Source: Amphiscolops sp. MND2022
Taxonomy: Eukaryota
Length of the DNA stretch: 64,000 bases
Assembly: GCA_964187785.1 (NCBI GenBank)
Contig: OZ076409.1
Coordinates: 60,080,001-60,144,000, forward strand
Reading direction: 5' to 3'
Shown: piece after piece, positions 10,015 to 56,669 of the stretch
How the letters are laid out: each line of letters opens with the position of its first letter
How positions within the stretch are numbered: position 1 is the stretch's first letter
The notes under the pieces: model-generated
Databases searched by the model: none
The model's input: the letters and a program-made list of their open reading frames with translations, nothing else
Told to the model about the DNA's origin: nothing
Translations under genes and position numbers: made by a program

Positions 10015-10252
10015 GAACATTACGCCCAAAGCGAACATTACGCCCTAAGCGAACATTACGCCCAAAGCGAATATTAAGCCCAAAGCGGACAGTTAACGAA
10101 ATGTCCTTAGGCGTGATGTCCGTTTTTGACGAAATGTCCTTGGGCGTGATGTCCGTTTTGGACAAAATGTCCTTGGGCGTGATGTCCGTTTTGGACGAAA
10201 TGTCCTTGGGCGTGATGTCCGTTTTGGACGAAATGTCCTTGGGCGTATTGTC
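10015..10252. repeat. Fold-back minisatellite (18-bp x~4 facing 33-bp x~5)
   Basis: GAACATTACGCCCAAAGC units followed by CGAAATGTCCTTGGGCGTGATGTCCGTTTTGGA units that contain the reverse complement core. A related short TIR element lies at 26034-26160. Confidence 0.85.
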
Positions 10253-17240: not shown

Positions 17241-18780
17241 GAAGTCAAAGACAAACTCCTTCCTTTGAACCCTTTCATTGACGAACGCCAAATTATACGC
17301 TCTTCCGGACGTCTACAATACGCACCGTTACCGGCAGCTACGCGCATGCCTGTCGTTCTAGATGCCCAGAACGCAAAAACCCGCCTCCTCATGGTACACT
17401 TTCACGAAATCTGCCACCACGCCGGTCCCGAATACGTCAAGTCATTTCTGCAACAACGTTATTTCATTTTTGGCGTCCGTGCCGCACTGCGCAACATCAG
17501 TTATCTTTGCTTCCAATGCCGCCGCTTTAGCGCCAAAAACGTCGAGCCAATGATGGCGCTCTTACCCCGATGCCGATTTCCATCCCCAGATACGCCATAT
17601 CCGTTCGCCAACTCCGGAGTCGATGCGTTTGGACCATTCTTCATTGTCAACGGAAAACGAACTGAGAAACACTACAGCCTGATCTTCACCTGCCTCGTCA
17701 CCCGCGCCTGTCATTTGGAACCTTGTCCCGCCTTGACCACGGACTCCTTCATCAACGCCTTCCGACGCTTCATTGCCAGAAGAGGACAGCCGCAGTACAT
17801 TGTTCTGACAATGGAAAAAATTTCGTTGGTGCCCGTCGTGAGCTTCAGGAAGCCTTGAACGCAGGTATCCGCACAGCTCTGCAAACTACTCCCCTAGCAC
17901 CCGAGATGGAATGGCACCTCAACCCGCCGTTTGCGCCGCACTTTCCAAACGGCCAAGAAAACTCTACTCCTCATCCTAGGATCCAGAAAACTGACTCTAG
18001 AACTGTTTCACACAATCCTTGCCGAAACAGAACTCATGCTCAACTCACGACCTCTGATCCATGGTGCCGACTACCCTGACAACGAAGAACCTCTGACGCC
18101 CAACCATTTTCTTCTCCACAGACCTTATGCAAACCTGCCACCTGGAGTTTTCAAAGATTCCAGTTATCAGCTCACGCATAAGTCTTGGAAAGAAACCCAA
18201 AAACTTGTCAACCATATTTGGAAGAGACTGCTAACTGAATACATTCCCACATTGCACCACCGGTCCAAGTGGAATCAACAACTATCACCAATTACTGTTG
18301 GAGAACTTGTGTGGGTGCTTCGAGACTTCCCTCCTCGTGGGATTTGGCCTATTGGGCGAGTGGAAGCTGTTTTCCCTGGGCGAGATGGACCCGAGTGTGT
18401 TCTGTAAAGACAGCTTACGGAACTTTCGAGCGCCCCGCCGTCTCTCTTTCCCGCGTTTTCGCCCCGTGACGGTTCGTTCGCCACGACTCTTTTCTGGAGA
18501 GATTTTTCCCGGTCCGCCCTCGTCTCCCCTCTCTTCTCCCTGCAGCTTGGGGGGCTGGAGCATGTCAATGATGATTCACAACATTGACTCAACATTAACT
18601 CTAAACTATTTTCAACTTTACTTCCTGACTTTTCACGTTTGTTTTCATACTTTTGTTCAAACTGTTGATCATACTGGTGACTCACTAAATGAAATATAAA
18701 ACGTTTCTTATAAAGCCTAATTTTCTCTTCGTGTGACCGAATAAACTTGGGTGAAAGAAGACCCCAATCATCGGGTCACA
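17241..18780 (+). mobile_element. 5'-truncated BEL/Pao LTR retrotransposon (integrase plus 3' LTR)
   Basis: Motifs HEICHHAG...CFQC, GVDAFGPF, FTCLVTRACHLE, RRFIARRG, SDNGKNF, LNSRPL, LTPNHFL and WPIGRV, spread over frameshifted ORFs 17190-18469. G-rich tract followed by a TGT...ACA segment 18563-18780 with AATAAA at ~18740. Confidence 0.9.
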
Positions 18781-26600: not shown

Positions 26601-28299
26601 TGTCGCAGACGGCCGCCTGCGATGGAAATTGGTATACGATTGCATATGGATACTGCAGGGCTTTACCCGGAACAATCCCATTAGATTGAGAGGGCACAGT
26701 GATTTGAGCCAGGAAGTCCAAAGGAACTATTATCAGAACTTTTGTGATAAAAACTGTTTTGTATTATTGTATTACGTAATTCCATACATTTGATAATAAT
26801 ATTGCTCTTAGTTATGCGATAAAACATGCAATTATACTTAAATTTGCTTTAAATTGGACACCAAGGCGTACAGGTAGAGGAAACGCGTTCAAAGTGTTTC
26901 CTCTCCTGTCAGCGCAGACAAGCAGTCCAATTAAAATCAACCAATCACAGGACGCTATTCATTTATTTGCTGTGCTGTATTCATTCCCGTGCTGTATTCT
27001 AAATTAAGAGACTCAAAGGCCATATGCCGCCTAACTGACACAGTCTTTATACCAAACAAAGGCGCGTGGACACTGAGTCCAAAATTGAATATAAGCTGGT
27101 GCGAATACTAGAGATAGTAGTGTGCTATTTTAGAAACGATGCTACTTTAGAAACGCTTTGATTAAACTACATCTCTGAGATTACAAAAGGACTTCCAGTC
27201 CTTTCCCCCCCCATCTTTGCTTCCTTCCCAAAATATCTTGGGTAAAGAATTAGATGAGTAATTTATGCCATGGAAAGCTGTAAACAATGACCCATGAGTC
27301 TATGTACCATTTTGTGTGTACCTATTACATGTAATTAACATGAAATGTTCTACATGTAGTGTTGCTGATGAAATACAATTGAATGGCCTGAAGGGCCACA
27401 TGAACAATCATGAAAGTAGCTGCTACGTTTATATGCGTGCATATACATATACGTGTGTAAATGAATAACGTCATGGCAGTTACTATTTTTAGAAACATGT
27501 TATTACGTTTGTAAAGACACGTTGTCATACATGTCTATTTATAGAATGTTTGTTACTAAAATTAGACTGATGACTCTCAATATTATGTATGTCATGCAAG
27601 GTCAATTATAAATAACCGGGACCCGTGGTCCCGGGGACATAATTTTCCTATGACAAGTCACAGTCAGTTCGTTATTGAATAACCGAATAAAATACTGTTT
27701 GCAAGCTCAAAGATTCCAATTCAAATTCTTTACTCTTGCAACAATCTCTTATGCCTTCTACTAGACGCCAGAAAGCAAAGGCTAGAAAATCTAGAGAGAT
27801 GGACATGTTGTCCGATATAGAAAATATGGACGTGATGTTAGGAAATGGGGGTAGCAATCCCATAGAAAGAGAATTAACTGATGCTATTGAACAATCATCA
27901 GTACAGGGAGACGTAGAGTCGAATGAACACTTGGGAAATCAGTATACTAGCTTTGCTTATGAAAATAACCTTCCTAGGCAAGATGATATTAGACAATCCC
28001 TTGAGACCTTTTCAAATGAATTCAATCTCAGATTATCACAAGAAATGGATTCAATGATGTCCATGATGCATAGCCAAATAAATAGGGCTATCAGTAGTGC
28101 TATCGCAGAAAGGGTTTTCCCGAAATCCAGAACATTGTGAGTTCTATGTCCTCTTCAGTAAACAGGGACACTGAGGCCAGTGTATCGCCAAATAGCCAGG
28201 AAAACAGGGAATGTTCATCCGGGTTTAAATCAAAATTTGCAAAGAAGGACTCACAGTCTGCATGTGATTTAAGAGACATTGCAGGTCGTAGTTATTACA
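26601..28299 (+). repeat. 5' LTR (1699 bp)
   Basis: Starts TGTCGCAGAC and ends GTTATTACA. About 15 substitutions and one 1-bp indel (~28116) versus the 3' LTR, counted by eye. TATAAATA at ~27607, TCAGTT at 27664, AATAAA at 27686-27691. Confidence 0.97.
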
Positions 28300-29438
28300 T
28301 GGTGACAGGAGCTAACGAAACCCAACAGCCAATTCCCGAATTCCTGTCCGGACGAATCCACTCAATCCCAAACCTGGAGAGACAACAATCTAACCACAAT
28401 GTCTCTCTGGATACGACTCTGCCAGCTCCAGACCCTGAGGTCCCAGAGTCAACCCAGGACCCGCTCAACAGATTGGCTGACGTATTAGTCAATCTGCAAA
28501 ACAAACCACAAACGATGACCATCCGACCAGTCCAAACCACACCAATGACATTTGACGGGAAAAGTGAAAAATTTGAACTTTTTGAGGACCTGTTCCACAC
28601 AATGATCAAAATGCAACCGGCCATGACAGAGCAAATGAAAATTAACCATTTTCACTCCTTGCTCAGGAAAGGGGCCCTACAAACTTTCAGGAACATAAAC
28701 TCAATTAACCGTCAAACACTTGAGGACGTACTGGTCATATTCCGGAGGAAATACGTCAAACCGGAATCCCAAGCAACGGCAAAACATAAATGGCATCGGC
28801 TCACTTTTGACCCCAACACCATGAAATTGCCAGATTTCTTGGAAGAACTGAACCAGGGGGCAGAAAAAGCATTTGGCGAAAATGCAAAGAGCATGATTGA
28901 CAGCTTATTGTACGCAAAATTGCCTCCAAAACTCAAACGATCTGTCAACATGGCCCGCCTGGAGAACGGTACATACGAAGAAATTGTCGCTCATCTTGAA
29001 AGAGAGCTTGAACTCAATGCATTGGAAGAGTCTGATGACTTACCAATGGCCACCATGGCCTCTGCGTCTACCAGCAACAACAATTTGCTGTCGAACGGCA
29101 TAAATACCAATAAAGACGCACAATGCTCTTATTGCAAAGCCACAGGCCACTTTTATAAGAGCTGCCCCAAACTGAAAAAGAAGACGGAATTGGAGGACAA
29201 AAATGGCAAAAAGCCCCAACGCCCTACATACCCAGAATGCCCTACTTGCGGAAAGAAAAATCACCCCGTTGAGAGATGCTGGAAAGGGGCTGGAGCACAT
29301 TTACGCCCCAAAAGGACACGTCCTGAAGATAAGGCTGATGACACCTCTGGAGATGAAAAATCATACAAGAAGTCAACTAGCCCCGAAACCACATCTTCAA
29401 GTCATTCATCTTCTCGAAAAACCGATTCAAAAAACTAA
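27751..29438 (+). pseudogene. gag: Gag (~562 aa reconstructed; one 1-bp deletion at ~28116)
   Basis: ORFs 27736-28140 and 28137-29438 fuse when the A present in the 3' LTR copy (AGGGTTATTCCC) is restored. Capsid-like region TFDGKSEKFELFEDLF...HFHSLLRKGAL. Two CCHC knuckles: CSYCKATGHFYKSC and CPTCGKKNHPVERC. Confidence 0.92.
28300..28312 (+). promoter_or_regulatory. Primer-binding site, tRNA-Leu-like
   Basis: TGGTGACAGGAGC immediately follows the LTR terminal CA. It resembles the TGGTGTCAGGAG type complementary to a tRNA-Leu 3' end; the tRNA identity is tentative. Confidence 0.8.
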
Positions 29439-32400
29439 TTTCGCCACGACTCCAAGTTTCCAACCAGATGTCAGTGCGACAATATGTCATATCTGACCCA
29501 CCAAACATTATTTATAAACAAACTCAAAACGATACCACAGGAATGCCATCGACTGTCTGGCAGCAGCAAATGGCCAACGCCCGCATGGAAACTCAACATA
29601 TTATCCATAGCGACCACCCATACTTATATAGACGTACTAGCTACGACAACGACTCGGAAACTCACTTTCGCCCCTTACAAACTGTCGAAGATTATAACCC
29701 TCAATACTATGACCCCGAGTATGGCAAAGACCCGTACTGGGACGAAGAACTATATGACAAAACCAATTTACAATTTCGAAACGAAGATTACCCTCCAACT
29801 GACGACGAGGACGACCCAGACATTGAAGACAACACACTGTCTCGGGCCCTCATTGATCTTTGGCAGCCAAATTTTGATGCAATAATACAAGGAGTAGACG
29901 CCACTCAACAACAGGAAGGCCACAAAGCCTCTAACAGCCTTTTAGATGAAACGGCCTTCCTGCATCTCTTAGTGGCCAAGGAAGGAGAGCCATCCTACGT
30001 TCCCCTTTCAACAAACCTTGGGCTCAAATTTAAAAGACGAATGCTCTATTTCCCAATGGATTTTGGAGAGTTAACCCTAGACGGCCTAATCGACACTGGA
30101 GCCCACTCCAGTGCAATACCGGAAGCAGACCTTAGAAAGATACGCCTATTGGCCCCCCAGTCGATAGTAAAAGAAGGCCCTGCTCCATCTTTCCAAATAA
30201 TGGTCGCAAATGGTGATTTAGAAACCCCAAAGAGCACAGTCGAACTAAAATTGGAGGTGGGAGACATAGAATTTCATGAAATCTTCATTGTAATGGAAAA
30301 ACTGTCTAGCCCCATAATTGGACTGATGTTGCTGCAGAGGAACCACACCGTCCTGGACATGCGCCAAGGTATACTCAATTTCCCTTACTTCTCGATGCAA
30401 TTAAAAACGGCCGACCACAAGTATTCCAATGTAATGGAGCCAATTCTCAACCCTGAAGACATCACCATTCCTCCGAATGACCTTGCAGTCATCTCTATAC
30501 AGTCCCAGATCTATGCCGAAAATGCAGTCACGGGGATATTACAACCCAGTGACCTCCTCCATGAGGAAGGCGACGTCACATTTTGCGCCGCCATAGTCAC
30601 ATTGCACGAAGGGACTATGAACATACATGTCAATAATTTCACTGATCAACCCTACAAACTTAAGAAAGGGTTACATATTGCGAACTTCTCAGTGATGACT
30701 CCTGAACAAATGAAACATGTCCGACCAATAGACCCGGTGTCCACCTGGCATCTATTGAACGGAAATGAGGAAGACGCCATTTACTATTTTAGCAGCCTTC
30801 TTAAGGCCAATAAAAACAACGACCAATATGAACAGTATTGGTTCCCGACACCTGAGAACCCAGGGGACGAAACAACACATACGCCCATCCAGCAAAGAAT
30901 TCACAGAGAATTACGAAATCTAAAAGATATAGAAAATCTTAACCCGCAAGACAATGCTGAATCTAGACAAAAATTCCTTAGCAATTTTGACTGGAAGGAT
31001 TCAATGCTACAACAGCATGAAATCAAACAAATAGAAGCTCTTTTGGTAGAATTTAATGACATCTTCGCCCGACACAGATTTGATATCGGCGTCAACGAGG
31101 AATTTACGGTCAAATTGACCCCGAAGGACGATTCATCAGCTTATAGCCGGAGCTTACCTACCCCAGTCAATCTCAAAGAGGATATATTGGTGGAACTGGC
31201 TTTACTTCATAAATATGGTATTATAACGACACTACCATTCTCAAAGTATGCCAGCCCCATATTCGCCCAGAAAAAACCCAATGGCAAATTAAGACTACTG
31301 GTTGACTTGAGGAAAATTAATAATCTCATATCTGACGATTATATCAATAACAATCACCCAGTCAGCACCTTAACGGATGCCGCGCAGCATATGGCCGGGA
31401 AAAAGCTTTTCTGCAAACTTGATTGCTCGCAGGCCTATCATTGTCTCCCAATGGCCGACCAGAGGTCTATTGAAATGCTCGCTTTCAATTTTGCTAGCAG
31501 GACCTTTGCCTACCGCAGATTGGCGCAAGGCCTCAGCAGAGCCTTATCGGCTTTCTCCAGTTTTATGCGAGAGTATTTAGACCGGGTGATCAAAGCAGAT
31601 CAATGCGCACAATATGTGGACGACATTGGCATCGCAGCCAATGATGCCGAACATCTCATAACCAACCTCAGGGCTCCTTTTGAATGTATCAGACAAGCCG
31701 GACTCAAACTGTCCATGCACAAGTGCCACTTTGGCACTACCGAAATTGACTTTCTAGGGAGAACCATTACCCCTGAAGGTGTAAAACCCCAAAAAGAAAG
31801 AATCACTAACTTCTTGGAAAAGACGAAATTCCCAAAGTCCAAGAAGGCCTTACAACGCTATCTTGGTTTCCTCAATTACTACAGGAATTATATTCCAAGG
31901 CTATCCGAAAAACTAGTTCCCTTCTTCCAATTGCTCAAAAAAGATGAGAAGGTACTAGTGACGCGAGAGCTGGTTGAACAATTTACTGAGATCAACCGCG
32001 ATTTAGACCGATGTAGTCAATTGGCGTTGAAACAACCTCTGCCGAACAAACAACTGGTCCTCATGACTGACGCAAGTTTTACAGCAGCCGGTTACGCCAT
32101 ATTGACCGAAGACGACCCAAATCAAAAACACACTTCTGTTAAAAAATCCTATGCGCCGATTGCATACGGATCTAAAACTTTCACGCCTTCTCAGCTCAAA
32201 ATGTCGATATATGCAAAGGAATTCCTAGCTATATATTATGCATTTAGAGACTTTGGACATATATTCTGGGGAACACCTCAACCTGTGATTATTCTCACAG
32301 ATAACAAATCGGTTACGAGGTTCTTCCAAACCAAGATAATTCCACCGCCACTTTGGAATGCTTGTGATTTTGTAATTCAGTTCAACTTCATCATAGCTCA

Positions 32401-34541
32401 CATTCCAGGCAAGAACAACACAGCGGCAGACTACCTGTCCCGCAGGGAAATGGACCCCACTGAAAAGTTGGTCCTGAAAATACGAGAGGACGTAGAAACT
32501 AGACCGATCGAAGTCAATGTCCAATCGGCCGGCGTGTCAGAGGAAGAGCAAATTTTCTTCACTGAGGAGGACAACGAAACAGAAGAACAGATTTGGGAAC
32601 GGAAAAAACAATCCAAAAAAGGACTCATGGTCCCTGAGACAGTCATCCACATTGATGCCATATCGGAAAATACAATAGAAGAAATTACCAATTTCACACA
32701 AAAATTACGACGAACTAACCAGATACATACTGCTTGAACAGTGTAAAGACCCGATTCTGCTCCAATTGAAAGCAAAACTTCAAAAGGAAGAATTTGCTGA
32801 AGAAATCCTACAACAAGATATTCGGTATAAGTACTATTTGAACAATATAGACCGAATAGTCCTTAAAGACGAAATTGTGACAAGACAGTACTATGACGAA
32901 ATTGGCCAGATCAAATATCATCAAATTCTGTTACCGAAGCACTTAGTTCAAGAACTATTACAAGCAATACATGGTACAGCACATCGCCATCCAGGCATTT
33001 CTAAAATGCTACAGGAAATTCGCCAAAAATATTACTACCCAGGAATTGCAAAACATGTCAAAAAAAGGGTCGAAGGATGCGAAACATGTGCCAAGGACAA
33101 AAGGGCCCCCAACACGGTAATTACCCCAGAATTACTAAATTTGCCCGAATGGGACCTAGGGCCAGAAGATGCCATGCAAATTGACTTATTACCAAATTTA
33201 CCAACCAGCGGCGGATACCAAACAGTGATGACTGCAATAGACGTATTTTCAAGATATCTTTTTGCCTAGCCACTCACTGAGGCAACAGCCGCAAATGTAG
33301 CTAAAGTCATTATCGATATAATGACAAAACACTCGTATTTGCCAACAACACTCATCACGGACAAGGGGTCCGCATTTACCTCAAAAATTTTAGAAGAAAT
33401 TACTGAGATATTGGGAATCACACTGAAATGCGCCACTACTAAACACCCGCAAACTATTGGCAAACTTGAAAGGACTCACGCCTCTTTAAAAACCAACCTG
33501 AAGATGGCCTCAGGGGAATATCGTCGTCAATGGCACAAATATTTACCATTAGCAGTGCTCAACTATAACACTACTTATCACGCTAGTAATGGTTGTGAGC
33601 CTAGCAAAGTCTTCCATGGCCGAATCCCCTACAATGTCCTTGATCATAAATTAGGAAATAACCCTAATAAAAATTTCCTACCAACAACTGAATTTGCGGA
33701 AGAATTACAGCAGAGGACGCAAATCCTCATTGATCAGACAAAAAAGAATATTATGCAGTCGTATTTAAAGTACAAGGAGTACTACGACCGCAAGGCCAAA
33801 GCGGCTCCGCTACAAGAGAAAGACTACTGTTTTGTTCTTCAACCGAAAGCGGATAGTCAAGGCTCCAAAATACCATTTAGGGACTTCCGATGGATTGGTC
33901 CCTTTGTCGTCCAAAAAACCCTACCAAATAACAATTATATAGTGCGTCGTTTAAATACGAATAAAACGCAGATCTTGCACCGGATCAGGCTCAAAAACTT
34001 TGTTCCAAACACCCCATTAGAGGACAAATTTAAAGAAGAGAAATTACAGCCTGATGAGGAGATAGTAATACCGCAAGATGATTTGTATACCATCTCATGG
34101 GAAGCGGACTTTGAGTACGAGCTATTCGAGCCGAAGACAAATGATTGGCCACACACGGCCACGCGTCTGCCACAGGACGCCGCGAACGGAGAAGTCGACT
34201 ATTACGTCACCGAGAATGAAAGCAGCAGCGTAAACGAAAGTGAGCGCAGCAGCGAGAGAATGAATGACAATGACGTCAACGAGAATGAAGTACGGCCAAG
34301 ATCGGCCAGCATCCGTGACGCGTCGTCCCCTCCGAGCGAATCGCCTAGTAGGACGGAAAATGAAAATGACGTCACAAATGATTTAGAAAATGAGAAAATT
34401 GCTTCAAAAGGAGGCGTAGATATTACCGTGCCCGGAATATCGGAAAATGAAAGAAATGAGGAAAATCCTAGCCCTAGAGGAGGGAAATGTTATCTTCGAC
34501 CTAACCCCAACCCCAACTTTACTGATGAATAAAGATACTAG
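29435..34541 (+). pseudogene. pol: Pol polyprotein (protease, RT, RNase H, integrase) with few lesions
   Basis: Protease LIDTGA; RT LRLLVDLRKIN, KLDCSQAYH, YVDD; RNase H LMTDAS, YAKEFLA, ILTDNK, ADYLSR; integrase HGTAHRHPG...CETC, QIDL, ITDKG, KLERTH. Lesions: 4-bp ATAC duplication at 32723-32730, in-frame TAG at 33267-33269, probable premature TAA at 34530-34532 (FTDE*RY*). Confidence 0.95.
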
Positions 34542-34766
34542 TCAAATATGTAAATTAAAGTCCCGGAGGTTTCTTGGACTAAAATGGACACCAATTCTGT
34601 TGGGACTACTCCGACTGTGAATTTTAACACAAACGTACTGTTGACAATAAAAGACTCATTGGCACATAAATTAACACCAAAAATAAAGGCAGACGAAATA
34701 AATAACACGCGAAGTTTGTGATAAATACATAAAAACAGATAAAACACAAATGTACATTATGTACAT

Positions 34767-37700
34767 TTAAGGCTTAGATGCAGATTGCACGGGCCCTGGA
34801 GTAGAGGAACCTCCCATCGGTGGTGATGCTGATCGGAAACCTACTTTCCGTTTCCCCTTCCCAGGAGACTCTTTTCGACGCTTGCTAGTAGTAGGTGAGG
34901 TGGACCTGGAGGCCGAGCGACTGGAAGATGGCGACTTGGTTTTCTGTGAGAGAGACTTATGCTTCTGCCAAAGAATCTTGTAGAAATGAGCTTTTCCAAA
35001 TACATCAACATGAGTCCAAGGGTCTCCAGCCACATTGCCTGTGTTGAATTCCTGCTCTATCTCTCGTAACTTGCTGAGAGAATCATCCTTGGTGCAAATG
35101 GATAAAGCTTCAGTAACCCGGGCCAGGTAGGATTGTGCAGGCAAAAGGACATCTCCCCAACTACACTTTGGCCTTTGAGCGTGAACATCGTGGAAGCGGA
35201 TGGGGGGAAGCAAAGGAGTGTTTTCAGTTAAGCACATACAGCTTAATTGGAACAGGCGGTAAAGATGAGCCCGATTACGGAGTTCAGGCATGGAAGAAAG
35301 CAAATTGATCATGTCGGGAATACCGTTAGGGGCGTCCTTCAAAGAATGGTAGGCCTGGCGGAAATGTCCAATAAAATCCAGGTACTCATCGCGGCAGTCA
35401 TTTTCAGGCGAACCTTCAAGCCAACCTCGGAGACTGAAACTCTGGTAAAGCGCACTGAAACAAAAGTTGGCTTGCTCGAGCGGTAGACACAAGAGGATGC
35501 TAGGGTCGAAGCAGGCCATCCCACACACAATGTTGGCGTTTAGACTAACATGGCCCAGAAAGTTCTCTAAGAGGGGTACAATATAACTCCTCGCCTTAGC
35601 TACAAACTTCTCCTTAGCCTCTTCAACCAATGAGGTCATGTTGGAAATAGGCCCCTCTTGGTCACAATGGTCTCGTTTCACCTTGGCTGTTGCGGCAGCA
35701 TCCAGGTCTTGCTTTAACCTCAACCGAGTGAGGAAATCTCGAGAGGACAATTGACGGAGATCAGCAGTTCGGAGCACGGGCAACTGCGTCCAGTCAGTAT
35801 CTTTGGGGAGGTGCTTTGGTAAGAGGGCCCGATAACAGAGTTTTCTTACAAAGTTGTTCAGCTGGCCGAAGGTAAAAAACCCCGAATCTCGGTGTCCCAC
35901 CAGGCTCCTTTCGAAACAGATGTTATCTAAACAGTGAGAACGAATAATAGCAAACTGCCCTCAACGTCTCCTGGACTTACCAGACTAGTTCTCCTCCCTT
36001 AAACATGAAGTATGAAGCCTAGACAAAAGATACTTACAATCGTACACGATTCTTCCGTAGAACTCCAATTTCAGCAAGAAGAAGTCGTCGCTGATGATTT
36101 GCCACTCAAGGCTTTGTGGCTAAAAGGAAACAAGAATCACCAGCTATGATCGGGCTATAAGGGGGTAGGAATCAAACCATGACCTAAACCAGCTAATAAG
36201 GCAAAATTCCAACCTTGTTCTTGACTCCAGCCATTTCATAATTGGGTGCAATCAGAGTGATGTGGTCCAAGAATGCTGTCCAATTCACTATGATCTCCGA
36301 GCATATGGTGGGGATAGAAAGGAGACGCAAATCCCAATTGCTAATGGCCCACAAAACAACCTGACGTGATAAAAATGTACGAGGAACTCGACTTTGAAGC
36401 CCAAAGCATAAAAACCAACCTTAGAGAGTTCAGGGGCTTTGACCATCCAAGGCTCGTCCAAACTGTGGGTTAGATATGCCAGCAGATATTTGAGTTGCGA
36501 ATAAAAATCGATTCGCCCAAAAACACTTCCTTCTCGTTTGTGCATAAGTTTGTGGAGAGATGTCACTTGGTAACGAAAAGGGTACTCGATACTCTTCTTT
36601 AACAAGGAAGACTCCTCAACGGCACGAAGAACACTAGCAGTACATCCACTCATGCAGACTATCTGGGGGGCTGTGGACAAGAGTGACAAGAGTCGTGCCA
36701 CGACGAGTAATTGACTTCGATCAGGATCAGCGGCCAGGCTGTACTGGAATAACTGGAGCTTCACGAAAAACCCTAACTTCCAGTAACGGAGCGATGCAAT
36801 CTCCTTGCTTCCCTGTGGCTCAAATTCGATCGAATATAGTCCGCTGTCATTAACTGTCTGCGCCACATCCTCCATTCCACGTAGGAAAACGTGATGGAAA
36901 ATAGCCTGAAACAGAATTCTTACTTAAAAGAATATAGAGGACGAATAGTTTGTTATGGATCCTTCCCCTTTTTCCCCAAACCCATAATTAAAGATGAGGT
37001 CAGTTAACGCTACACATACCGTGATTCTGGTGGAACTCCAGTCAAGATTCCCGAACAGCTCCTGGTGATTAGTGAAATTGCCGACCTCTGTCCAGAGTCC
37101 TTGCAGGGTCGCGAGATCGCCGAAGTACGGGACAAACCGCCCAATCAGAGATATTTGAGTCCCTGACCGGATGTCTTCAAAATTAGTCAATCCCCCTGCA
37201 CTTGACATATATTCGTCATAGAAGGGGAACCGTGGGCCGATGTCAACTAGAGGAACTGACTCAAATAGTGGCTTTTCTTTCTCCAGCTCAAACAGGGTAA
37301 GGATGTGCCCATCTCTTCCTCTGACGGAATGAATGACGTTGCCAGAAATTTTGTCGACCTTGCCAAAATGCTCAAACCTCCATCGCTGGTCTCTACGCAA
37401 ATGGCCCTCGGAGCTGTAATGCCGGATGATCTCTCGTGCACCTTTCGAATATATAGATACGTTGGTCTTACATATCTGGCAATAAAATTTGTGCTTGTTA
37501 TGCACGGGGTCAAGGGGGCCGGTTACAAACACTTTTGTCCACTGTATTCCCTTGAAGTAGGAGGACTTCATCACCTTGCCAGGTCGTGGTTGCAGTTTGC
37601 GCCTTTTTTGAGGAGGGCTAACTTCGGAATGTTGATGCTTGGTTTGTGGACACATCTGACAGAGAGGCTCATAGTCGCCCTCGCTGTACCCTGGACTAGG

Positions 37701-38794
37701 GATGGTGACATCTCCTGATTGTGATGTCACGTTTTCTCTCCTCGTCGCAAGTGTTTGAGTTGCGGAGGTACTTGCATCGGAATCAACTTCCTGACCGAGA
37801 ATTGTACCGGTTATGTCTTCATCAGTCTCATATGCTCCGCTGGTATACCCGTCAGTCGTATAGCCTTCACTGTCCGATTCCCCTTCAGAACTAGCTGATG
37901 TGGCCCTTGCAGGAGGCTTCCTCGGATCAGAGCTTTTCTAAGCTGCCCTGTAGTGTGTCCCTTTCCTCCGTGGACAGCATGCAAAACCAACGACCGCATG
38001 GCATGCAGAGAAGACTTCACAGTTTCATCCGAAATTGTTTTTAGCACGGCATGAATTTGGGGTTCGGTGAACGCAACTGTAGTATGTCCCCGAGGAAGGT
38101 CAACGGGGGCACTTTGAGCGAAATGTTTACGCAGCATAATTCGCCCATTAGCTGACAACTCCGTTGGCAGGGAGGGCCCTTTCTGTGATGAAGGTCCTTG
38201 TTGACTGGTGGTGTTTGAACATTCGGGCTCTGGGGATTTTCCTGGTGCAGTTTGTGGATCAAGTTCAACTATGCTGGATGTGGGCCTGTCAGTCAATCCG
38301 TCCACGCCCGCACTGTCGTAGACGCTTTCAACTTCACTGGCATCCGTCTCAAAATAACATTTTCTCTGCTCTTCTCCGATGTCAAAAGTACCAAGATCGA
38401 ACAAGTCGGCTTTCTTCTGTTGTCCAATGTTGGCCTGCTCTGTTCCAGACTGTGAGGCGGATAGGGCCTCTGACTCAGAAACCTTGGGAGGATGTGGGCC
38501 TGCCTCTCCTTGGGGGAAACCTTCGCTTGGTGCTGACAAAAATGTGACGTCCAAACTAGAATCCATCTGAGCTAAGTGATGTAAGGTCTGTTCCGCGAAT
38601 GTGGAAAGGCTCTCTTCAGTGTTGCCACTGCTCGAAGATAGGTTGGACAAAGGACGAACTCCAGGGAGGACATCTATCTCAGTCGGTCTCTTCCCTTGGG
38701 AAGGGTCAGCATGCCGCTCTGGCAAGCCTTGGACAGGAACGCCGGGACCAGCAGTAGTCAATTCACTATTTTCAGTTTGCTGTTCAGTCGCCAT
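34767..38794 (-). CDS. Spliced antisense accessory gene; hAT-transposase-like protein with BED-like zinc finger (~1216 aa; one frameshift at ~37915)
   Basis: Exons 38794-37020, 36905-36420, 36360-36214, 36119-36038 and 35926-34767. GT-AG introns of 114, 59, 94 and 111 nt join these exons in frame with no internal stops. Zinc-finger motif CQICKTNVSIYSKGAREIIRHYSSEGH. Confidence 0.85.
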
Positions 38795-40059
38795 GCCTAA
38801 GCAAAAGGAAATAAAATCAAGCGGGAACCTTCCTGAATAAGAATCCATCACCGCTTTAAAAATATTCTTCCGGAAGTGAATAATCTGAACTCGAGTGAAC
38901 ACTAGAGTTATTGGACAGGAAGTACGTGAACGGAAGAGAGTTCTGATCAAACCTCAAAAGTTCAATTTTGAAACAGAAAACTGAAAAGAAACCTTAGCCT
39001 ACTGACCTGTTTGAGCGTGGTCTCCAGGGAACTTGTTGTCGGTGTCCTCCATGAGAAAGGATGTATTGAGACAAATTGTTGTTGCTCGGTGCAGATGGTA
39101 AGATCACTGTGGTGGGAGTCGCAAAGCTGGGGACTGGATGTCGATTTTCCGCAGTGTTCCAGAAGAATCCACACGGATAAGGACGAGTGGACACTGAGTC
39201 CAGGGATGAAGCCGGAATGTAATGGAATGAAAATATAAATAGAAGTGACCTAAAGTCTAACTATCGACTAAAATAGAAGTGGATAAGTACAATGATGGTT
39301 AAATACCGGATAATAGAAGAACAAAAAGTTAAATTGAAAGTAAGGAATTGAAAAGACGAATAGGCGATGTGACAAGATGTCAAGATTGGAGTTCGTGGCT
39401 ATACAGTTTGGTGTCAAATTCATTGCTATTTACAATTTATGGCATTATGTGGATAGAGTCTGCCAGCGATATCTACATTTTCCTTATTTATTTCGAAAAC
39501 TTTATTTCGCAAAGTTATTTCATGATTTTATTTTATTTTATTTTACTTTATTTTGTTTTCAAGGCCATATTATTTTATTCCTTATATGGATTTACGGCCT
39601 TGGATCGCCATTTTATCAATGGAATCATATTTACGAAATTTGATTGGTTACCACCAGGAAGGCGAGACAGCGTGGCCTCCGACCGAATTCTCACCCTCTT
39701 AAAACTTTCAAAAGGACTATGAGTGTTAATAAACACTCATCTCGGTACTTAAGAAGTGAAGGTGATGATGAGGGCCATGAGTGTCAATACTGCCGCTGTC
39801 GGCAATTTCAAAGTGATTATAATAACTAGTTAAAAGAAAGTTACCCGGAAAATTTTGTTATTGAAAAATAACTCGGAATCGAAAAAGGAAAACCCGGGGA
39901 ATAGCAAACCGGGAGGCAACGAGACTCAGCGGACTGATAAGAGAAACGATCGCCATTATTAATTTTTCAATCGATCAGATCAGTCGCTCTAGAAAAGCCA
40001 CCTCGACTTGAAACTCTTACATTATCAAAATTGCCAAGAAAATATTAAAAACCAGATCA

Positions 40060-40880
40060 ATGTCTGATTTTCCTGAATTGTTCCCTATGGACTTCCTGGG
40101 TGCTGCTCTATCTGAAGGGGCTCCTGCAATAATTTATATCTCAAGTGATGAAGACGAGAGAATGGACTCCTTCGACGGAGACTCGGTGGATGACGTTAAC
40201 GTTTCATCTGAAGAAGAAATGTCAGACATCGAAATTATGGCGAGATGTGTAGAAAGACAAATGGCTGAACCCATTGCTATTCCTAACTCTGAAAAATCTG
40301 AGACTCAAGTTAGGTGCGGAACGCCCAGACCGGACTTACCGCCCTTCCCCGTCTTCACTCAGCACTTTTTCAACCTGGGCATGGGCAATGGGCCTATTGG
40401 GAGAGATGGCCGTGTAAGACCTAACCACCCTATCAATATCTGCAGGGACTTACGACCTAACGTAGATAGCCCAATGTCACCACCGCCAGAAGACAGAGGG
40501 CCGAATTGTGGACAAGAAACACCAAGCTGTTCCTACTCTACGGACCCTACCCCGGTCGAAAGCGTGGCTAACCACTTCAATGACATGACGGTGTCTGGGA
40601 ATGCTGGCTTACTGGGCTGCTCAGACTGTGTGGTCTGCGGGAAACCAGTCCAGCAAATACAAGACGAGACAGTCAACGACTACCTCAGCAAAACAGTTGT
40701 CCCAGGAGAAACACTGGCTGAGACTGAGAGAAGAAAGAGAGCTTTCTTGGACGGCATGGCAGCTGGAACATTTTATTAATGCCAGGGGGAGTGTCGCAGA
40801 CGGCCGCCTGCGATGGAAATTGGTATACGATTGCATATGGATACTGCAGGGCTTTACCCGGAACAATCCCATTAGATTGA
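40060..40880 (+). CDS. Accessory sense ORF (ORF3), unknown function; probably extends into U3 after a 1-nt deletion at ~40774
   Basis: 239-aa ORF 40060-40779 with an acidic N-terminus and CSDCVVC. Adding one T to the TTTT run continues it as FLLMPGGVSQTAACDGNWYTIAYGYCRALPGTIPLD* to 40880. Confidence 0.7.
40784..40791 (+). promoter_or_regulatory. Polypurine tract
   Basis: AGGGGGAG directly before the TG of the 3' LTR. Confidence 0.8.
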
Positions 40881-42491
40881 GAGGGCACAGTGATTTGAGC
40901 CAGGAAGTCCAAAGGAACTATTATCAGAACTTTTGTGATAAAAACTGTTTTGTATTATTGTATTATGTAATTCCATACATTTGATAATAATATTGCTCTT
41001 AGTTATGCGATAAAACATGCAATTATACTTAAATGTGCTTTAAATTGGACACCAAGGCGTACAGGTAGAGGAAACGAGTTCAAAGTGTTTCCTCTCCTGT
41101 CAGCGCAGACAAGCAGTCCAATTAAAATCAACCAATCACAGGACGCTATTCATTTATTTGCTGTGCTGTATTCATTCCCGTGCTGTATTCTAAATTAAGA
41201 GACTCAAAGGCCATATGCCGCCAAACTGACACAGTCTTTATACCAAACAAAGGCGCGTGGACACTGAGTCCAAAATTGAATATAAGCTGGTGCGAATACT
41301 AGAGATAGTAGTGTGCTATTTTAAAAACGATGCTACTTTAGAAACGCTTTCATTAAACCACATCTCTGAGATTACAAAAGGACTTCCAGTCCTTTCCCCC
41401 TCCATCTTTGCTTCCTTCCCAAAATATCTTGGGTAAAGAATTAGATGAGTAATTTATGCCATGGAAAGCTGTAAACAATGACCCATGAGTCTATGTACCA
41501 TTTTGTGTGTACCTATTACATGTAATTAACATGAAATGTTCTACATGTAGTGTTGCTGATGAAATACAATTGAATGGCCTGAAGGGCCACATGAACAATC
41601 ATGAAAGTAGCTGCTACGTTTATATGCGTGCATATACATATACGTGTGTAAATGAATTACGTCATGGCAGATACTATTTTTAGAAACATGTTATTACGTT
41701 TGTAAAGACACGTAGTCATACATGTCTATTTATAGAATGTTTGTTACTAAAATTAGACTGATGACTCTCAATATTATGTATGTCATGCAAGGTCAATTAT
41801 AAATAACCGGGACCCGTGGTCCCGGGGACATAATTTTCCTATGACAAGTCACAGTCAGTTCGTTGTTGAATAACCGAATAAAATACTGTTTGCAAGCTCA
41901 AAGATTCCAATTCAAATTCTTTACTCTTGCAACAATCTCTTATGCCTTCTACTAGACGCCAGAAAGCAAAGGCTAGAAAATCTAGAGAGGTGGACATGTT
42001 GTCCGATATAGAAAATATGGACGTGATGTTAGGAAATGGGGGTAGCAATCCCATAGAAAGAGAATTAACTGATGCTATTGAACAATCATCAGTACAGGGA
42101 GACGTAGAGTCGAATGAACACTTGGGAAATCAGTATACTAGCTTTGCTTATGAAAATAACCTTCCTAGGCAAGATGATATTAGACAATCCCTTGAGACCT
42201 TTTCAAATGAATTCAATCTCAGATTATCACAAGAAATGGATTCAATGATGTCCATGATGCATAGCCAAATAAATAGGGCTATCAGTAATGCTATCGCAGA
42301 AAGGGTTATTCCCGAAATCCAGAACATTGTGAGTTCTATGTCCTCTTCAGGAAACAGGGACACTGAGGCCAGTGTATCGCCAAATAGCCAGGAAAACAGG
42401 GAATGTTCATCCGGGTTTAAATCAAAATTTGCAAAGAAGGACTCACAGTCTGCATGTGATTTAAGAGACATTGCAGGTCGTAGTTATTACA
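40792..42491 (+). repeat. 3' LTR (1700 bp)
   Basis: Near-identical copy of 26601-28299, preceded by a purine tract and followed by the TSD CCCAC. Confidence 0.97.
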
Positions 42492-42499
42492 CCCACTGA
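41942..42499 (+). CDS. Intact LTR-encoded Gag N-terminal segment (185 aa) in the 3' LTR
   Basis: ATG 41942 (MPSTRRQKAKARKS...) stays open to the LTR end and stops 8 nt into the flank. It is the same sequence as the gag 5' part. Confidence 0.75.
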   Translation: MPSTRRQKAKARKSREVDMLSDIENMDVMLGNGGSNPIERELTDAIEQSSVQGDVESNEHLGNQYTSFAYENNLPRQDDIRQSLETFSNEFNLRLSQEMDSMMSMMHSQINRAISNAIAERVIPEIQNIVSSMSSSGNRDTEASVSPNSQENRECSSGFKSKFAKKDSQSACDLRDIAGRSYYTH

Positions 42500-43931: not shown

Positions 43932-46900
43932 TGTAGTATTTTGAAAAGGTTACTAGGTAAAAACGAATTAGTAGTAGGAGATTTCTTTATGGCTCAATAT
44001 GAAAGATGTTCACGACTTTTTCTATCTACACTCTAGCAAAACATGTATAAAATGGTATCACGATTTAGTACAAACAAAAAGGGTTGTTAACAAATACAAC
44101 AAAACAAAAGAAGTCATTTGATAATTGCTAGTCTAAAGTCGTCATTGTTTTTGATTGGCACTTTTTTCCGAATAATTCGGTTCGGTATTTTACACCGTAT
44201 AACCGGTTATCAGTTCTCCATCCGCGTGGAGATTTAGCTCGTCTTCCGGTGATGTTGTAAATGGCCGGTATCCGTCTCTTTCGGAAGTGTCATTGTTTTC
44301 GAAGTCGCTCTCTTCGTCTTCTACCTCTCCTTCTTAGCTCTCAGTGTCGGTTTGGGCTTTTTTATTTTGCACTCTTTGAGTTTTCCGTTTAATACATCCC
44401 TCAGGATTTCATTCCATTGGATGTATTTGCCGTCGACTCCTCTCAGGCAGTGTCTGTTTTTCGGGGTGATGGTGTCTCCGATCTTCGGTGCACGTTCTGT
44501 TTTCTTTTCTTTCGAACTTTTCTTTTTCGGTGATTTTTCTGTCATTGCTTTCTCTTCTGTGTTTGTCTGGGCAACGACAAGATGGTTTGATACTTCTCCG
44601 TCACTGTTGCGTGATATAATATTGGTATCTTCGGTCTACTTTCGGCTGGAACGGATCATTTCAACCATTTAGACAGGAATGATTTACCGCCTTGTATTAA
44701 ATTTGTACGTTCGGTTCTCCGTTTTCGGCTGTGATGTAATTCAAATGGTGTTTTTTCAATCCCGTGTGTATTTTAAGTAGCATTACGTTAAATGCTCTAA
44801 TTACGCAATCGGTGAAACACAGACTGTCTTCCAGATTGGCTAATATTAGGTTCTTCGTCGTCTGTATAGCACCTTCTCCCGCGCCGGTGCCGGTATGTAG
44901 TCTCAGTGTACTATATTCGATTTCAATACTTCAGGATTTGCAAAATTCTTTATATTCTTTCGACTTAAACGCTCTGCCTTCGTCAAGTTCAATTTTTTCG
45001 AGAAGTCCGTATAAATTGAAATTTTGGTTTAAGAAGCTCAATTCTTCTTTTGTTTCCGACGACTTGCAAATTTTTGCGGTTGGCCATTTACCGAACCTAT
45101 ATACGGCTATTAATAGTTGTTATTCGCCGTTTAATTTTTTGTTGTTCAATTTCCCGGAGAAATCATTTTTTCTATTTTCCCGGTTCGGTTAATGTTTGTA
45201 GTTCTCTTGTTTCATTTTTTGGTGTTTGATAGATTAAATTCTTACCCGATGCCATGCAATCTACACAGAATTTTTTTCGGTCTTCGTTATCTATGGAGAT
45301 GCTTGGCCACCAATATACCCGGGCTTCGGTTAGCATTTTAGTTGTTTCGGCGTGGCCGAAGTAGTGTTTCCATTAGGTTCTTTCTCAGTTCTGCTGAGAC
45401 AAAAATTTTCTCGTCGTTAAATGTTTGTCCCCATGTGTTGCATAACTTCTCAAATGTCGGTAGATATTGCTCTAGTGCCGTGTTCTTCTGTCCTCGTCTC
45501 ATGGCATCTCTGAACTGGTTGAGCTCGGCGTCGGTGGCGGACGCAGCAATGAGCGTCTTTAGGTCAAGCATGAAGTTGAATTCTGCTTTTTTTCACTTCT
45601 TCGGCGGCAGTTTTGTCTCCGGTCTTCTTGTCGATGATTTGGTTGATTTGGATAAAATGTGCTTCCTTTCCGTCAGCGTTGTAGGCCTTCAATTCTACGA
45701 TCGGGAAGTTGTCTCCTACGGTCTTCTGTCTTTTGCCTTCACTCTCCAGTTCATTCTGTTCGACCTCTTCCCGTGGCTGATTTTCTTCTTTTCTGTCTTT
45801 GAGTGGCTGGTATCCTCCGTCGAATCTATTTGCTCGGTTGAGCAATTCTCCGTCTATTTCCGCTAATTCTTCGCGGCTCTTTTTATTGGGTCTTGGCGGA
45901 ACTCAAACTTGGCGTTGACCATTCAGGTCAAACTTCCTTCTCATCGTTCCGGGGCGTGATACTAGCCTCCGATCCACTAGTCTCCGGGCTTTTTTTCCTC
46001 TAATTATCTCCATGATTTCTGCGGTATCTCCCCAGTGAAAGTAATCTTGATCCATGTTTCTCTTTGGAGAAAATTAATTTGGTGAAATTTGATTTGAATT
46101 TTTGTCGGTTGAAATAAAAGTTTCGAACTTTTCTCGGTAAGTGATGCAAATTTCGCTGTTATGTGCTGTTTCTTAACGTTTCAGTCTTCGTCGAACGTTC
46201 TAATGCGTTTTGGTTGGTTGTGAGATTTTATTTCGCTCGTTTTACGTATTTCGGTAGTGCTTTGTGATTCGTCCGCGAGAAGTGAGCCGTATTAGATGTT
46301 TATTTCGGCTTGCTCGGAAAGAACATTTATCACGTATTTTTCATCCTACGCGTTTTCGGTCGTTACTTCTTCTACCGCATTTCTACTTAGAAAGTCGGTA
46401 AACTCTAAATTACTTCCTGCAATGTGTTGGAGGGCATTATCAAAGTGAGCTAATCGATCTAGCCATCTTGTTAGCTTTGCGCTGTATTGTTTATTACACC
46501 AGTTTCTTTTAATCAACGGTTCATTTGCTTGATGGGTCTGTATAACGAAAGACTTTCTTCCCGTATAAATAAAATCAAATTTTTGTAAGCCCGATACCAC
46601 GGCTAATAGTTCCTACTCTCCAATCGAAGAGTTTTTCACTTTCGTTTAAGTATCTGCCACCGAATGCTATCGGTTTAATTTCTCCGTACGATTGTTTTTG
46701 ACACAATGTTATTCCAAGACTTGCGTCGGTCGTCACTATGTTTTCCCGGTCTTTCGCATAGTGAGCCAGACAGGGTTCGTCGGTTAATAACTTCTTAATG
46801 CTCTTGAAATCATCTTCTTGTTCATTTCCCCAATCCATTGGGATCTTTTTTAATAGTCCTCGCAGTCTTTCGGTCCTTTCCTGTAGTGTCAGTAAAACTT

Positions 46901-49376
46901 TTGCAAGATATTGGATTGCTCTCAGTAAGGATTTTAATTGTTTTTCATTCTCCGGGTGTTTCAGATCAATAATTGCCTCCACTTTTTCTTTGTTCGGTTT
47001 ATTACCGTTTCCATCGTTTCATCGTTTTCATGTTCGGCCATTTGTTTTGTTTAGGAAAAGATTGGATTACTTTTCACTTGCTAGGTATCCAGCATCTTCT
47101 AGTTTGTTCAAAACAATGAATATTTTCTTTTCGTGATCTTCCTGGCTTCCTCCGGTTTCGAAAATTATGTCGTCTTACCGGGCAGGTGTTGAATATTCTA
47201 ATGTTCGGTCAATTGTTTCTTGAAAGATAGTCAGGATGTCGGCCAATCCGTAAAAGCCTTTCTTGAATATTTAAAATCCGGTAAAGTTTCCTTCGGTTTT
47301 TGAGATTACACATTGTCGGCTGGCTTATTTTGACAAATTCATCTGGCCGTATGTGTAGTCTAAATCTATTTTCGAGATCATTAGATTCTTTGTCCGGTCT
47401 CTAGTGATTTCTACAGAAATTTGGTTCAAAAACTCCTCCAAGTTTTGCATGTGTTGTCTGATTTCGTACAACTGTCGTTTAATGTTCTCCAATCTAATGC
47501 GATCTTTTTTGAATTGTCATTTTTTTACCGTGATAACCATCGGGTATACGAAACAATCTTCGTCCACGTGTTTCTCTTTCTCCAAGTGTCGCGTTTTTAT
47601 TTAATTTTTCCACTTCTTTACCGACTTCTTTTTGGAGATGTAGTGGTATCGGTCTCGCTTTTTGTTTTACCGGATAATGTACCGTTTGAGTTGCATATTT
47701 ATTTCGGTATCTTTTATTGTAGTGTTGTTCTTGAATAGATCCGGAAATTGTTCGATCACTTGTTTCTTTTCTGATTGGTTATTTTCGTCCAATCGGAAGT
47801 TTCTGATCGTCAAGTTGAATTTCTTTAACCAAACCATTCTGAGTAGCAATGTTATGTCATTTCTTTCGGTAATCAGTACTTGAATCTTCTGTTTGTTGTT
47901 CTCGTATTCAAAATCTACCGGTATTTGTCCGCGGAATTTCACTTCATTTTTGTTAACATCTTGATACCGATGTTTTACATTTTGGATTTCGGTTTCCTTC
48001 AGGATGTTGTCGTCTGCCGGCTTTTTTGAAATTGGTGATCCGGTATCAAACATAAATTCTTTTTCGGTTCCGTTTATTCTCACTCATGTCGTCAAGTATT
48101 TGTTTTGGTCGGTAGTTCTATTTATCTTCTCAATCCGGTGTATGCTTGATTCTGATTGGTCAGATTTGTTTCCAATCATTGTTGCTTCTTCTTCGGTAAC
48201 ATTGCGTATTCTCGTTTGTTATTCTCCTTTTGTCTGCATGCTCGTGCAAAGTGTCCTTTTCTTCCAAAGTTATTGCATAATTTGTCTATTGCCGTGCAAT
48301 TGTTTGAAGGGTTCCAGTTTGGTGCGTTGCAGATATTGCACGGTTTTTTATTTGTTGTTCTCTTTTTCGGTCTAGTACCGAATTTTTCTATTTTCGTATT
48401 GCTCCTTCTTTTGTTTTTCCCGGTTTGTGATGAGGGCTGCTGGTATGTTTTTTTGGTTTTTTCTTTCGTAGGTGTTCTGTTTGACCATTTCGATTGTTTT
48501 TTTCAAATGCAGTTTCATTTCTTTCATTAATTCGTCTCAGATTTTTGTGTCTGTGATTGCGGTATAGAATTTTGAGATGAGTAAATCTTCGGCTGTTATT
48601 CCTTCGAAAGCGCACTTTTTTTCGATTTCTATCAGTCTTCGCTAGAAATCTTCCGGTCGGTGTCTGGGCTTCTGACTGTCTGATCCAGACGAATTCTGCG
48701 CGGTTGTGATAAATGTTTCGTTTCGGTAAGAAGTTATTCGTTGAACAATATAATCAAATCTTTGATCTTTATTTTGTCCGGTTCTGTTTTGTACTCTGCC
48801 CGCGTCATTTGGTATGAGGCTTCGGGTCCAATACCCCATTTGAAATCTTTTTGTATTTCTCATTTTCTTTTTCGACCCAACCGTTTTGTGTTATGTCAGC
48901 TCCTCGTATCAATTCGGCAAAATTTATCTTGTATTTTCTCTTTGATTTTTGTCTGAATCTCTCGAGCCACTGTTTTGGTGTATAAATTCTTTTCCCGTCT
49001 GATGTGGCCTCGAGGTTCGGTACTTCAATTTAACTTGTTTCTTGGGTCATCTTTTTTGTTGCGGTAAAATTAAATGTTTGTTAGTAATGCTGACTGCGCT
49101 ATGTAATATTTTGTAAAGGTTACTAAGTAAAAACGAATTAGTAGTAAGAGATTTCTTTATGGATCAATATCAATGGTGCTCACGACTTTTTCTATATATA
49201 CTCTAGCAAAACATATGTATCAAATGGTATCACGATTTAGTACAAACAAAAAAGGTTGTTTACAAATACAACAAAACATAAAAGAGTCATTTGATAATTG
49301 CTAGTCTAACGTGATCACTGTTTTTGATTGGCACTTTTTCCGAATAATTCGGTTCGGTATTTTACATCGTATAACA
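43932..49376 (-). mobile_element. Decayed Ty3/Gypsy LTR retrotransposon (possibly Mag-like)
   Basis: ~273-bp LTRs at 43932-44204 and 49102-49376, roughly 90% identical by eye. TSD GTATA at 43927-43931 and 49377-49381. Degenerate PBS TAGCGCAGTCAG on the minus strand at 49101. Fragments: protease FMFDTGSPI (47667-48083), RT/RNase H IVTTDAS and LTRWLDRLAHFD...DFLSR (46346-46982), integrase remnants ~44750-45400. Many stops and frameshifts. Confidence 0.9.
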
Positions 49377-55535: not shown

Positions 55536-56669
55536 CCCGGATTGACCCTCTTACTAGCATCTTGGCTATCTTGGCAAGATCTTGCCAAATTCTTACTACA
55601 TCTTGGCAACCATGGAACCAATGGCAAGATTCTTATTAAGATCTTACTAAGATAATACATTATCCCAAGATCGTATCTTAGCACGATGGACAAAAATCTA
55701 AGATTTTATAAAAACACTATACCTTCGGTACAAGCAGCCGAAACTCTATCTAAACGCTAATTTCACCCAACAACGACTATTTCTACCCAATTTCATAATC
55801 AAAATGCCTCAACCCGCTAAAATAATGTGCGAAAATTTACGATAACGTATTCTGGCTTCCGAAGTCCTGACGAGAATCTTAATAACTCTTCGCCTGCTTA
55901 AGACTGAAAAATGCGAATGCACCAAATGGAAGCTCATTTTAGGAACTTTTGAAAACTTGTAACGCATCACTCCTGTCGATTCCAGACGCGGAGACAAATG
56001 CGCTTAAACGTCCAGAGCTACTATCGGAAAATTATACAGCTCGGGAATTATAATAAATTATTATAAATCGGGAAATGTTTTCAAATTCATATCTCCAGCT
56101 TTTTTGAGCCTGTTTCAGCAGTCCTATTCCTGCTGGAAACAGCGGCCATTGCCCAGTTTTTGGGTAATGATGTAGCTCGAGGCTTTTCTGACGCCGTTAT
56201 TGGCCTCGATTTTGCCATTGATCGAACAATTCAATCAGTGCCTCCTTAAATATACAGTATAAGCACTCTTCAATTAAATTTTATACCTTGCTAACAGAGA
56301 ATTGTCATGTCTAACATTGTAAATCTGCATAGATCATCTATGCAGATTTACATTGTTAGACATGACAATTTTTTATTAGCAAGGTATAAAATTTAATTGA
56401 AGAATGCTTATGCTGTATATTTAGGGAGGCACTGATTAAATTGTTCGATACATGGTGTATATTTTTGTTGACTTCCTTTCAGATTTTTTCTGCCCAAATA
56501 GGATTTTACAATGAAATTTTTCTTGGTAACATGGCTCTCTTGATAAGATTTTGCCATGGAATTTTGCAATTCTTGGCAATATCGGCAAGATCTTAGCTAA
56601 GATTTTTCCAAGATCTTCGCAAAATCTTGCCAAAATCTTACTAAGATATCCATGGAGGGTCGACCCGGG
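55536..56669. mobile_element. Non-autonomous CACTA/CMC-like element
   Basis: TIRs CCCGGATTGACCCTC / GAGGGTCGACCCGGG, 2-bp TSD TA, subterminal CTTGGCAAGATCTT repeats. Confidence 0.75.
56221..56449. repeat. 229-bp near-perfect palindrome
   Basis: 114-bp arms around a single C at 56335, with about 8 mismatches by eye. Confidence 0.93.

Follow-up and report, generated by a model that had tools for sequence, protein, structure and literature searches.

The window, a 64,000-nucleotide stretch of the Amphiscolops sp. MND2022 genome (assembly GCA_964187785.1, contig OZ076409.1, positions 60,080,001 to 60,144,000), contains a 15.9 kb Ty3/Gypsy long terminal repeat (LTR) retrotransposon at window positions 26601-42491 that encloses a gene running antisense to pol. 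Judged from the sequences of its genomic copies, this gene is shown to be protein-coding, to carry four conserved introns, to be under purifying selection between subfamilies and to travel with pol. The same kind of comparison shows that it is exchanged as a unit, or cassette, between elements. The predicted protein has a suggestive link to hAT transposases.

Structure of the antisense gene

The gene is read on the minus strand and comprises the following features in the window copy.

34751..34765, minus strand: two TGTACA motifs just past the antisense stop, retained by cassette versions that differ greatly from one another
34767..35926, minus strand: exon 5, with helical region, basic tail and stop
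35927..36037, minus strand: intron 4, 111 nt, phase 1
36038..36119, minus strand: exon 4
36120..36213, minus strand: intron 3, 94 nt, phase 0
36214..36348, minus strand: exon 3, 45 codons
36349..36419, minus strand: intron 2, 71 nt, phase 0, acceptor damaged in the window copy
36420..36905, minus strand: exon 2, with a long helix and RNase H-like alpha/beta core
36906..37019, minus strand: intron 1, 114 nt, phase 0
37020..38848, minus strand: coding part of exon 1, with acidic N-terminus, basic patch and zinc finger, and a private frameshift near 37915
38943..39006, minus strand: candidate intron of the 5′ untranslated region, GT in 20/20 and AG in 20/20 copies
39330..39480, no strand assigned: non-coding block, conserved, close to the upstream boundary of the cassette that is exchanged

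A preliminary description had placed an antisense gene of ~1,216 codons here, starting at 38794. The gene itself stands, and its coding start is probably 38848, since ATG is present there in 19/20 copies against 17/20 at 38794, third-position changes lie between the two sites, and a matching N-terminal motif occurs in relatives (43 of 71 that reach at least 590 amino acids). In most copies, the frame that opens at 38848 has 1,231 codons with the stop counted. The four GT..AG intervals proposed earlier are all present and join the exon frames without a stop in the window copy. Introns 1, 3 and 4 retain GT in 20/20, 19/20 and 20/20 copies and AG in 20/20, 19/19 and 19/20, respectively. For intron 2, the donor at 36419 holds (GT in 20/20), but the proposed acceptor at 36361 was rejected as the family site: AG occurs there in 13/20 copies, and an in-frame stop then follows in 10 of those 13. 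The family acceptor lies 12 nt further in, at 36350-36349, with AG in 19/20 copies and absent from the window copy only. The 1-nt lesion near 37915 is likewise real and private to the window copy (18 of the 19 others are one base longer and one has a different indel), but it is not the sole lesion, the intron-2 acceptor being the second. With two lesions in the gene and two in pol, the claim of a lesion density no higher than that of pol roughly holds. The preliminary description had not recognised that the acceptor is damaged, that the start lies earlier, that the fold resembles that of a transposase or that cassettes are exchanged.

The donors of introns 2 and 3 (36419 and 36213) read GTTG, far off the usual consensus, and are retained in most copies. 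The region of the candidate 5′-untranslated intron is generally conserved, so that its GT/AG retention is weaker evidence. We take the TGTACA pair to be a possible 3′-end processing signal (UGUA). The block at 39330..39480 is a candidate internal promoter and may also be a crossover site.

Genomic copies, splice-site conservation and selection

Searching the 1.07 Gb genome returned 26 near-full-length matches with 68–100% identity; a 20-copy alignment, which leaves out ten partial loci and the six 68% copies, underlies the counts above. The gene is thus present in many copies, and its splice sites are conserved among them, with donors reading GT in 19–20 of 20. A set of six distant copies keeps the boundary dinucleotides in 45/47 cells, compared with 135/306 for GT/AG inside introns. 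Introns also diverge faster than exons, with 20.9 versus 2.1 indels per kb and, in this distant set, 66% versus 78% identity.

Ratios of nonsynonymous to synonymous substitution (dN/dS) over ~1,200 codons were 0.30, 0.17, 0.12, 0.11, 0.12 and 0.09 in pairs against one copy (L002), with synonymous sites saturated in a seventh pair; more distant subfamilies gave 0.09–0.17. The two short exons (72 codons) are constrained as well. Four control frames had proportions of nonsynonymous to synonymous differences (pN/pS) of 1.06–2.0, and the in-register sense frame had 0.26–0.33, the usual shadow of a coding frame. Selection on the antisense gene is nearly as strong as on integrase. Near-identical copies, measured as pN/pS and not as dN/dS, gave 0.46–1.04. 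Most genomic copies are decayed: three of 20 are free of stops and length shifts in every exon, and one of these three has an insertion at a splice boundary. Selection appears to work during replication of the element and not on single inserted copies. Together, the copies, splice sites, dN/dS and intron divergence support the earlier proposal of a maintained accessory gene of the element.

Depth of the family

Profile searches recovered 206 exon-1 proteins, of which the 120 listed (all from ENA, one identical to this genome) are 48–97% identical, and 494 exon-5 relatives. A first exon-5 homologue search found nothing among longer proteins, and a JGI metagenome scan, which did not cover viral contigs, found no relative. 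In 110 exon-1 proteins extending as far as the exon boundary, the next residue is Val in 109 and the next two are Val-Ser in 91, as expected where the GT donor is translated through.

In locus L041, which represents a distant family, identity is 61% for the integrase and 33–52% for antisense exons 2–5. This locus has four GT-AG introns (94, 68, 69 and 76 nt) at unchanged positions and phases, with conventional donors where introns 2 and 3 of the window read GTTG. Among the matches listed for this branch, 48 of 62 exon-1 hits have integrase downstream on the opposite strand, 45 of those 48 integrase hits at 2.2–2.4 kb; 0/62 have one on the same strand, and chance is ~0.02. The gene lies between pol and the 3′ LTR in most copies, and where pol copies lack the window version, all five examined (L037, L040 and L044–L046) bear another.

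Exchange of the cassette between elements

In these five elements, pol is 97–98% identical to that of the window, and exon 5 is 64–65% identical in L045 and L046 and ~47% in L040 and L044, with L037 matching L040. Their far flank is again 94–97% like that of the window. Near-identical pol beside gene versions only 47–65% identical implies cassette exchange. Trees, from which L044–L046 are absent, place L037 and L040 inside the integrase clade of the window (support 100/98) and far outside it for exon 5, the nesting being read from support values and not from a formal clade test. The L041 family repeats the pattern: among the matches listed, 23 loci pair an integrase of at least 95% identity with an exon 1 of at most 70%. 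All nine versions examined retain the intron-4 acceptor and the TGTACA motif after the stop.

The exchange probably arose when co-packaged RNAs switched templates, a standard retroelement mechanism, at the conserved flanks. Copies L008–L014 are mosaic, with intron 2, exon 3 and exon 4 at 96–100% identity to the window and exons 1, 2 and 5 and introns 1, 3 and 4 at 84–93%, which indicates recombination within the cassette as well.

Protein features and a possible relation to hAT transposases

In the exon 1 product, an acidic N-terminus, for the most part disordered but including a single helical segment, and a basic patch are followed by a C2H2/BED-like zinc finger (37401-37481) whose two Cys and two His are nearly invariant. 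Atlas leads from this finger to zf-C2H2_12 and zf-BED, and Pfam gives weak C2H2 hits only. In the predicted structure, the order of zinc finger, RNase H-like fold and helical region is that of hAT transposases. Generic RNase H-like proteins obtain the best fold scores. Of the RNase H-like matches, the one that extends over the upstream helix as well is Hermes, which also aligns with exon 5 over the greatest length (167 residues), with correct order and spacing. In Atlas, the two halves of the protein point independently to hAT-derived families. The PF05699 dimerisation domain was found by Pfam in 0/123 members, whereas 24 of 30 Atlas hits share the PF05699 family set, the best cluster of which has PF05699 on 60%.

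Pfam gave an informative family for no exon and no hit to the TRP28 domain (PF04195); PDB sequence profiles and Foldseek against PDB and viral models gave no clear match, nor did a second exon-5 comparison, with Hermes not among the matches listed. Comparisons by hhalign with single and profiled Ac-type hATs were also negative, and a DUF4371 search found no match, its controls being likewise silent. The genome holds many hAT elements, and L042 and L043 carry long open Ac-type hAT transposase frames with no detectable relation to the antisense gene. A DDE catalytic triad is not recognisable in the model: no second catalytic Asp follows strand 4 in 10/10 rows (positions from the predicted structure), and exon 5 has no conserved Glu-Arg motif. 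In the window copy, neither terminal inverted repeats in excess of chance nor an 8-bp duplication mark the cassette ends. An env-like third open reading frame (ORF3) was excluded, the gene being antisense and not sense downstream of pol.

The host element and other features of the window

LTRs, target-site duplication, primer-binding site, polypurine tract and pol order are all present and identify the element as a Ty3/Gypsy LTR retrotransposon. The LTRs differ at 16 of 1,700 columns, have TG..CA ends and are flanked on both sides by the target-site duplication CCCAC.

26601..28299, plus strand: 5′ LTR, TG..CA, preceded by the 5-bp target-site duplication CCCAC
27751..29438, plus strand: gag, starting within the LTR, with a frameshift near 28120 in the window copy
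28300..28317, plus strand: primer-binding-site-like sequence with TGG start, directly 3′ of the 5′ LTR
29381..34532, plus strand: pol, with protease, weak dUTPase-like stretch, reverse transcriptase, RNase H and integrase
40060..40779, plus strand: second accessory open reading frame, 239 amino acids, head-to-head with the antisense gene and under purifying selection
40784..40791, plus strand: polypurine tract ahead of the 3′ LTR
40792..42491, plus strand: 3′ LTR, with CCCAC directly after

About 183 gag codons lie inside the LTR (27751-28299), and the frame continues through the primer site; since gag starts inside the LTR, the 3′ LTR repeats the gag frame (41882-42499). The gag-pol overlap contains a heptamer of X-XXY-YYZ type (29429-29435), consistent with −1 ribosomal frameshifting. 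The pol order of protease, reverse transcriptase, RNase H and integrase is that of Ty3/Gypsy, with two breaks in the window copy, a frame change near 32700 and a stop at 33267-33269. Some 230 additional residues precede the protease (29381-30700), and the dUTPase-like match between protease and reverse transcriptase is weak (E 0.012). The 239-residue sense frame has a dN/dS of ~0.1, ends at the purine tract and has no Pfam match; it contains a Cys-rich motif and a hydrophobic-acidic stretch, which to us resembles a SUMO-interacting motif. Rfam and ARAGORN gave no match. Related elements form head-to-tail arrays with ~14 kb spacing, near the element length minus one LTR (G000:C11 10.23-10.28 Mb, C11 38.66-38.70 Mb, C9 14.56-14.62 Mb and C5 3.37-3.40 Mb).

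Elsewhere in the window, a decayed integrase fragment on the plus strand (17187-18407) contains Integrase_H2C2 and DUF5641, a pair typical of the animal BEL/Pao group and taken as a sign of an animal host, and presumably derives from such an element. The plus strand is strongly T-rich at 44000-49000 (AT skew −0.29 to −0.46). This stretch, possibly another old element, is bordered by a pair of 275-nt direct repeats (43930 and 49100) that match each other at 91%. A 33-nt tandem array (10063-10260), a palindrome with 120-nt arms and a 1-nt spacer (56215-56455) and tandem repeats of ~174 nt (61222-61845) were also observed.

Proposed explanation and alternatives

We favour, with a probability of about 0.5 for the explanation as a whole, a hAT-like cassette acting as a regulator of its own element. 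An internal promoter near 39250-39500 in the spacer, which may serve the head-to-head sense frame too, would very likely drive the antisense transcript, which would then be spliced. The sense genomic RNA would be copied with the antisense introns intact, and these would survive retrotransposition since their splice signals do not appear on the sense RNA that is packaged. On balance, the source of the protein would be a hAT-like transposase gene, itself with introns, which inserted in antisense orientation into an ancestral element and subsequently lost its termini and its catalytic Asp. The zinc finger, acidic N-terminus and basic patches lead us to propose, tentatively, a nuclear sequence-specific DNA-binding regulator that activates or de-silences its own copies; our best guess, modelled on regulators that are dead transposases, is that the protein activates its own element or counteracts silencing. 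Swapping of divergent versions would then be the trace of an arms race, either against host silencing or among element lineages. That an animal retrotransposon clade has domesticated a DNA transposon, keeping its catalytically dead, intron-bearing hAT-like transposase for antisense regulation and swapping its versions as retroviruses swap env, has, in our estimate, slightly less than an even chance.

Other functions can be proposed for a gene of the same origin. Action at integration, through tethering or nuclear entry of the integration complex or target-site choice, would suit the zinc finger and basic patches, the nuclear-import function suggested for plant antisense ORFs (PMC7264820) and selection almost equal to that on integrase, yet versions 47–65% identical beside 97–99% identical pol speak against tight co-evolution with integrase, and we consider this role quite improbable. 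A competition or copy-control module that represses rivals or siblings or protects its own copies, with rare versions favoured, is unlikely too, if a little less so. It would account for several deeply diverged versions on one backbone and for the recurrence of the pattern at the 23 L041-family loci among the matches listed, and HBZ of human T-lymphotropic virus (HTLV), which is encoded by a spliced antisense gene and represses the provirus it comes from (PMC10186651), offers a parallel; such diversity by itself cannot, however, separate activation from repression.

The origin can also be read differently. An RNase H-fold source other than hAT (another DDE superfamily or a host gene) is the least unlikely of the alternatives, though doubtful: the negative Pfam, PDB-profile and hhalign results and the generic RNase H-like proteins at the top of the fold scores weigh against a hAT origin, whereas the independent convergence of both halves on hAT-derived families in Atlas and the ordered Hermes alignment across the upstream helix and exon 5 argue for it. 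A nested DNA transposon or one-off hitch-hiking insertion, as the transposase-like domain order and the many hAT elements of the genome might suggest, is extremely improbable given the fixed position and antisense orientation across families with 61% identical integrases, cassette ends that in the window copy lack terminal repeats above chance or an 8-bp duplication, and the missing second catalytic Asp. The many copies, the L041 introns and the opposite-strand integrase linkage rule out a one-off nested insertion.

Comparison with known systems

As noted in the preliminary description, plant Retand elements carry antisense extra ORFs (PMC7264820, PMC11963269). Plant aORF-3R genes (Retand, Grande gene23, RIRE2) resemble the present gene in being antisense, in the interval between pol and the 3′ LTR and in most copies; the Grande ORF has its own promoter and a nuclear product, the Retand ORF has a domain named Transposase 28, and according to a review the plant antisense ORFs have no similarity to other transposable elements (PMC7264820, PMC11963269). 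The origin and function of antisense extra ORFs in plant and fungal Gypsy elements are called unknown, and spliced antisense transcripts are named as worth seeking (PMC7264820). The word intron is absent from the available text of the Retand survey. The gene described here differs in its animal host, four conserved introns, lack of a TRP28 hit, length of ~1,230 amino acids, RNase H-like fold and allelic cassette exchange.

Antisense cargo with several introns probably has a precedent, since the brtn gene of Boty is reportedly multi-exon. This gene lies antisense within a Gypsy-type element of the fungus Botrytis cinerea, and the citing passages give no transposase link or cassette exchange (Zhao 2011, PMID 21802103, as cited in PMC7264820, PMC8365987 and PMC4227169). 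HTLV-1 hbz and HTLV-2/3/4 aph are likewise spliced antisense coding genes carried through reverse transcription, and encode nuclear regulators; they differ in being retroviral, LTR-driven and not four-intron, and in encoding small proteins, HBZ being a bZIP protein (PMC10186651).

Hermes and the hAT-derived GTF2IRD2, FAM200 and ZBED5 have a zinc finger, a helix, an RNase H-like core and a C-terminal half that is helical, and the predicted domains of the present protein follow the same order. Its 430-residue acidic N-terminal extension and the lack of a recognisable triad, terminal repeats and significant sequence match set it apart. Possible functional analogues are TnpA, which is transposase-derived, and VANC, both element-encoded sequence-specific regulators (10.64898/2026.08.24.746577, PMC5735166); these serve plant DNA transposons, whereas in the present case a protein of DNA-transposon origin would work for a retrotransposon. 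Bdelloid LTR elements, some lineages of which encode dUTPase, are animal elements with captured modular extra ORFs, but their ORF3 encodes Env, GDSL or DEDDy, with no intron or transposase mentioned in the main text (PMC5408684).

The literature covered, which excluded supplements, subscription journals and Repbase, yielded neither an animal example nor hAT-like cargo nor allelic exchange, and we found no previous report of an intron-conserving, transposase-like, exchangeable antisense gene in an animal. For antisense extra genes, the family offers a traceable candidate origin, a four-intron architecture and hundreds of natural variants, and its near-constant pol backbone with exchanged cassettes amounts to a series of natural swap experiments. 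Were the hAT origin true, one transposon class would have been domesticated by another and not by the host. The family also shows that intron-containing genes can pass through reverse transcription over long evolutionary periods.
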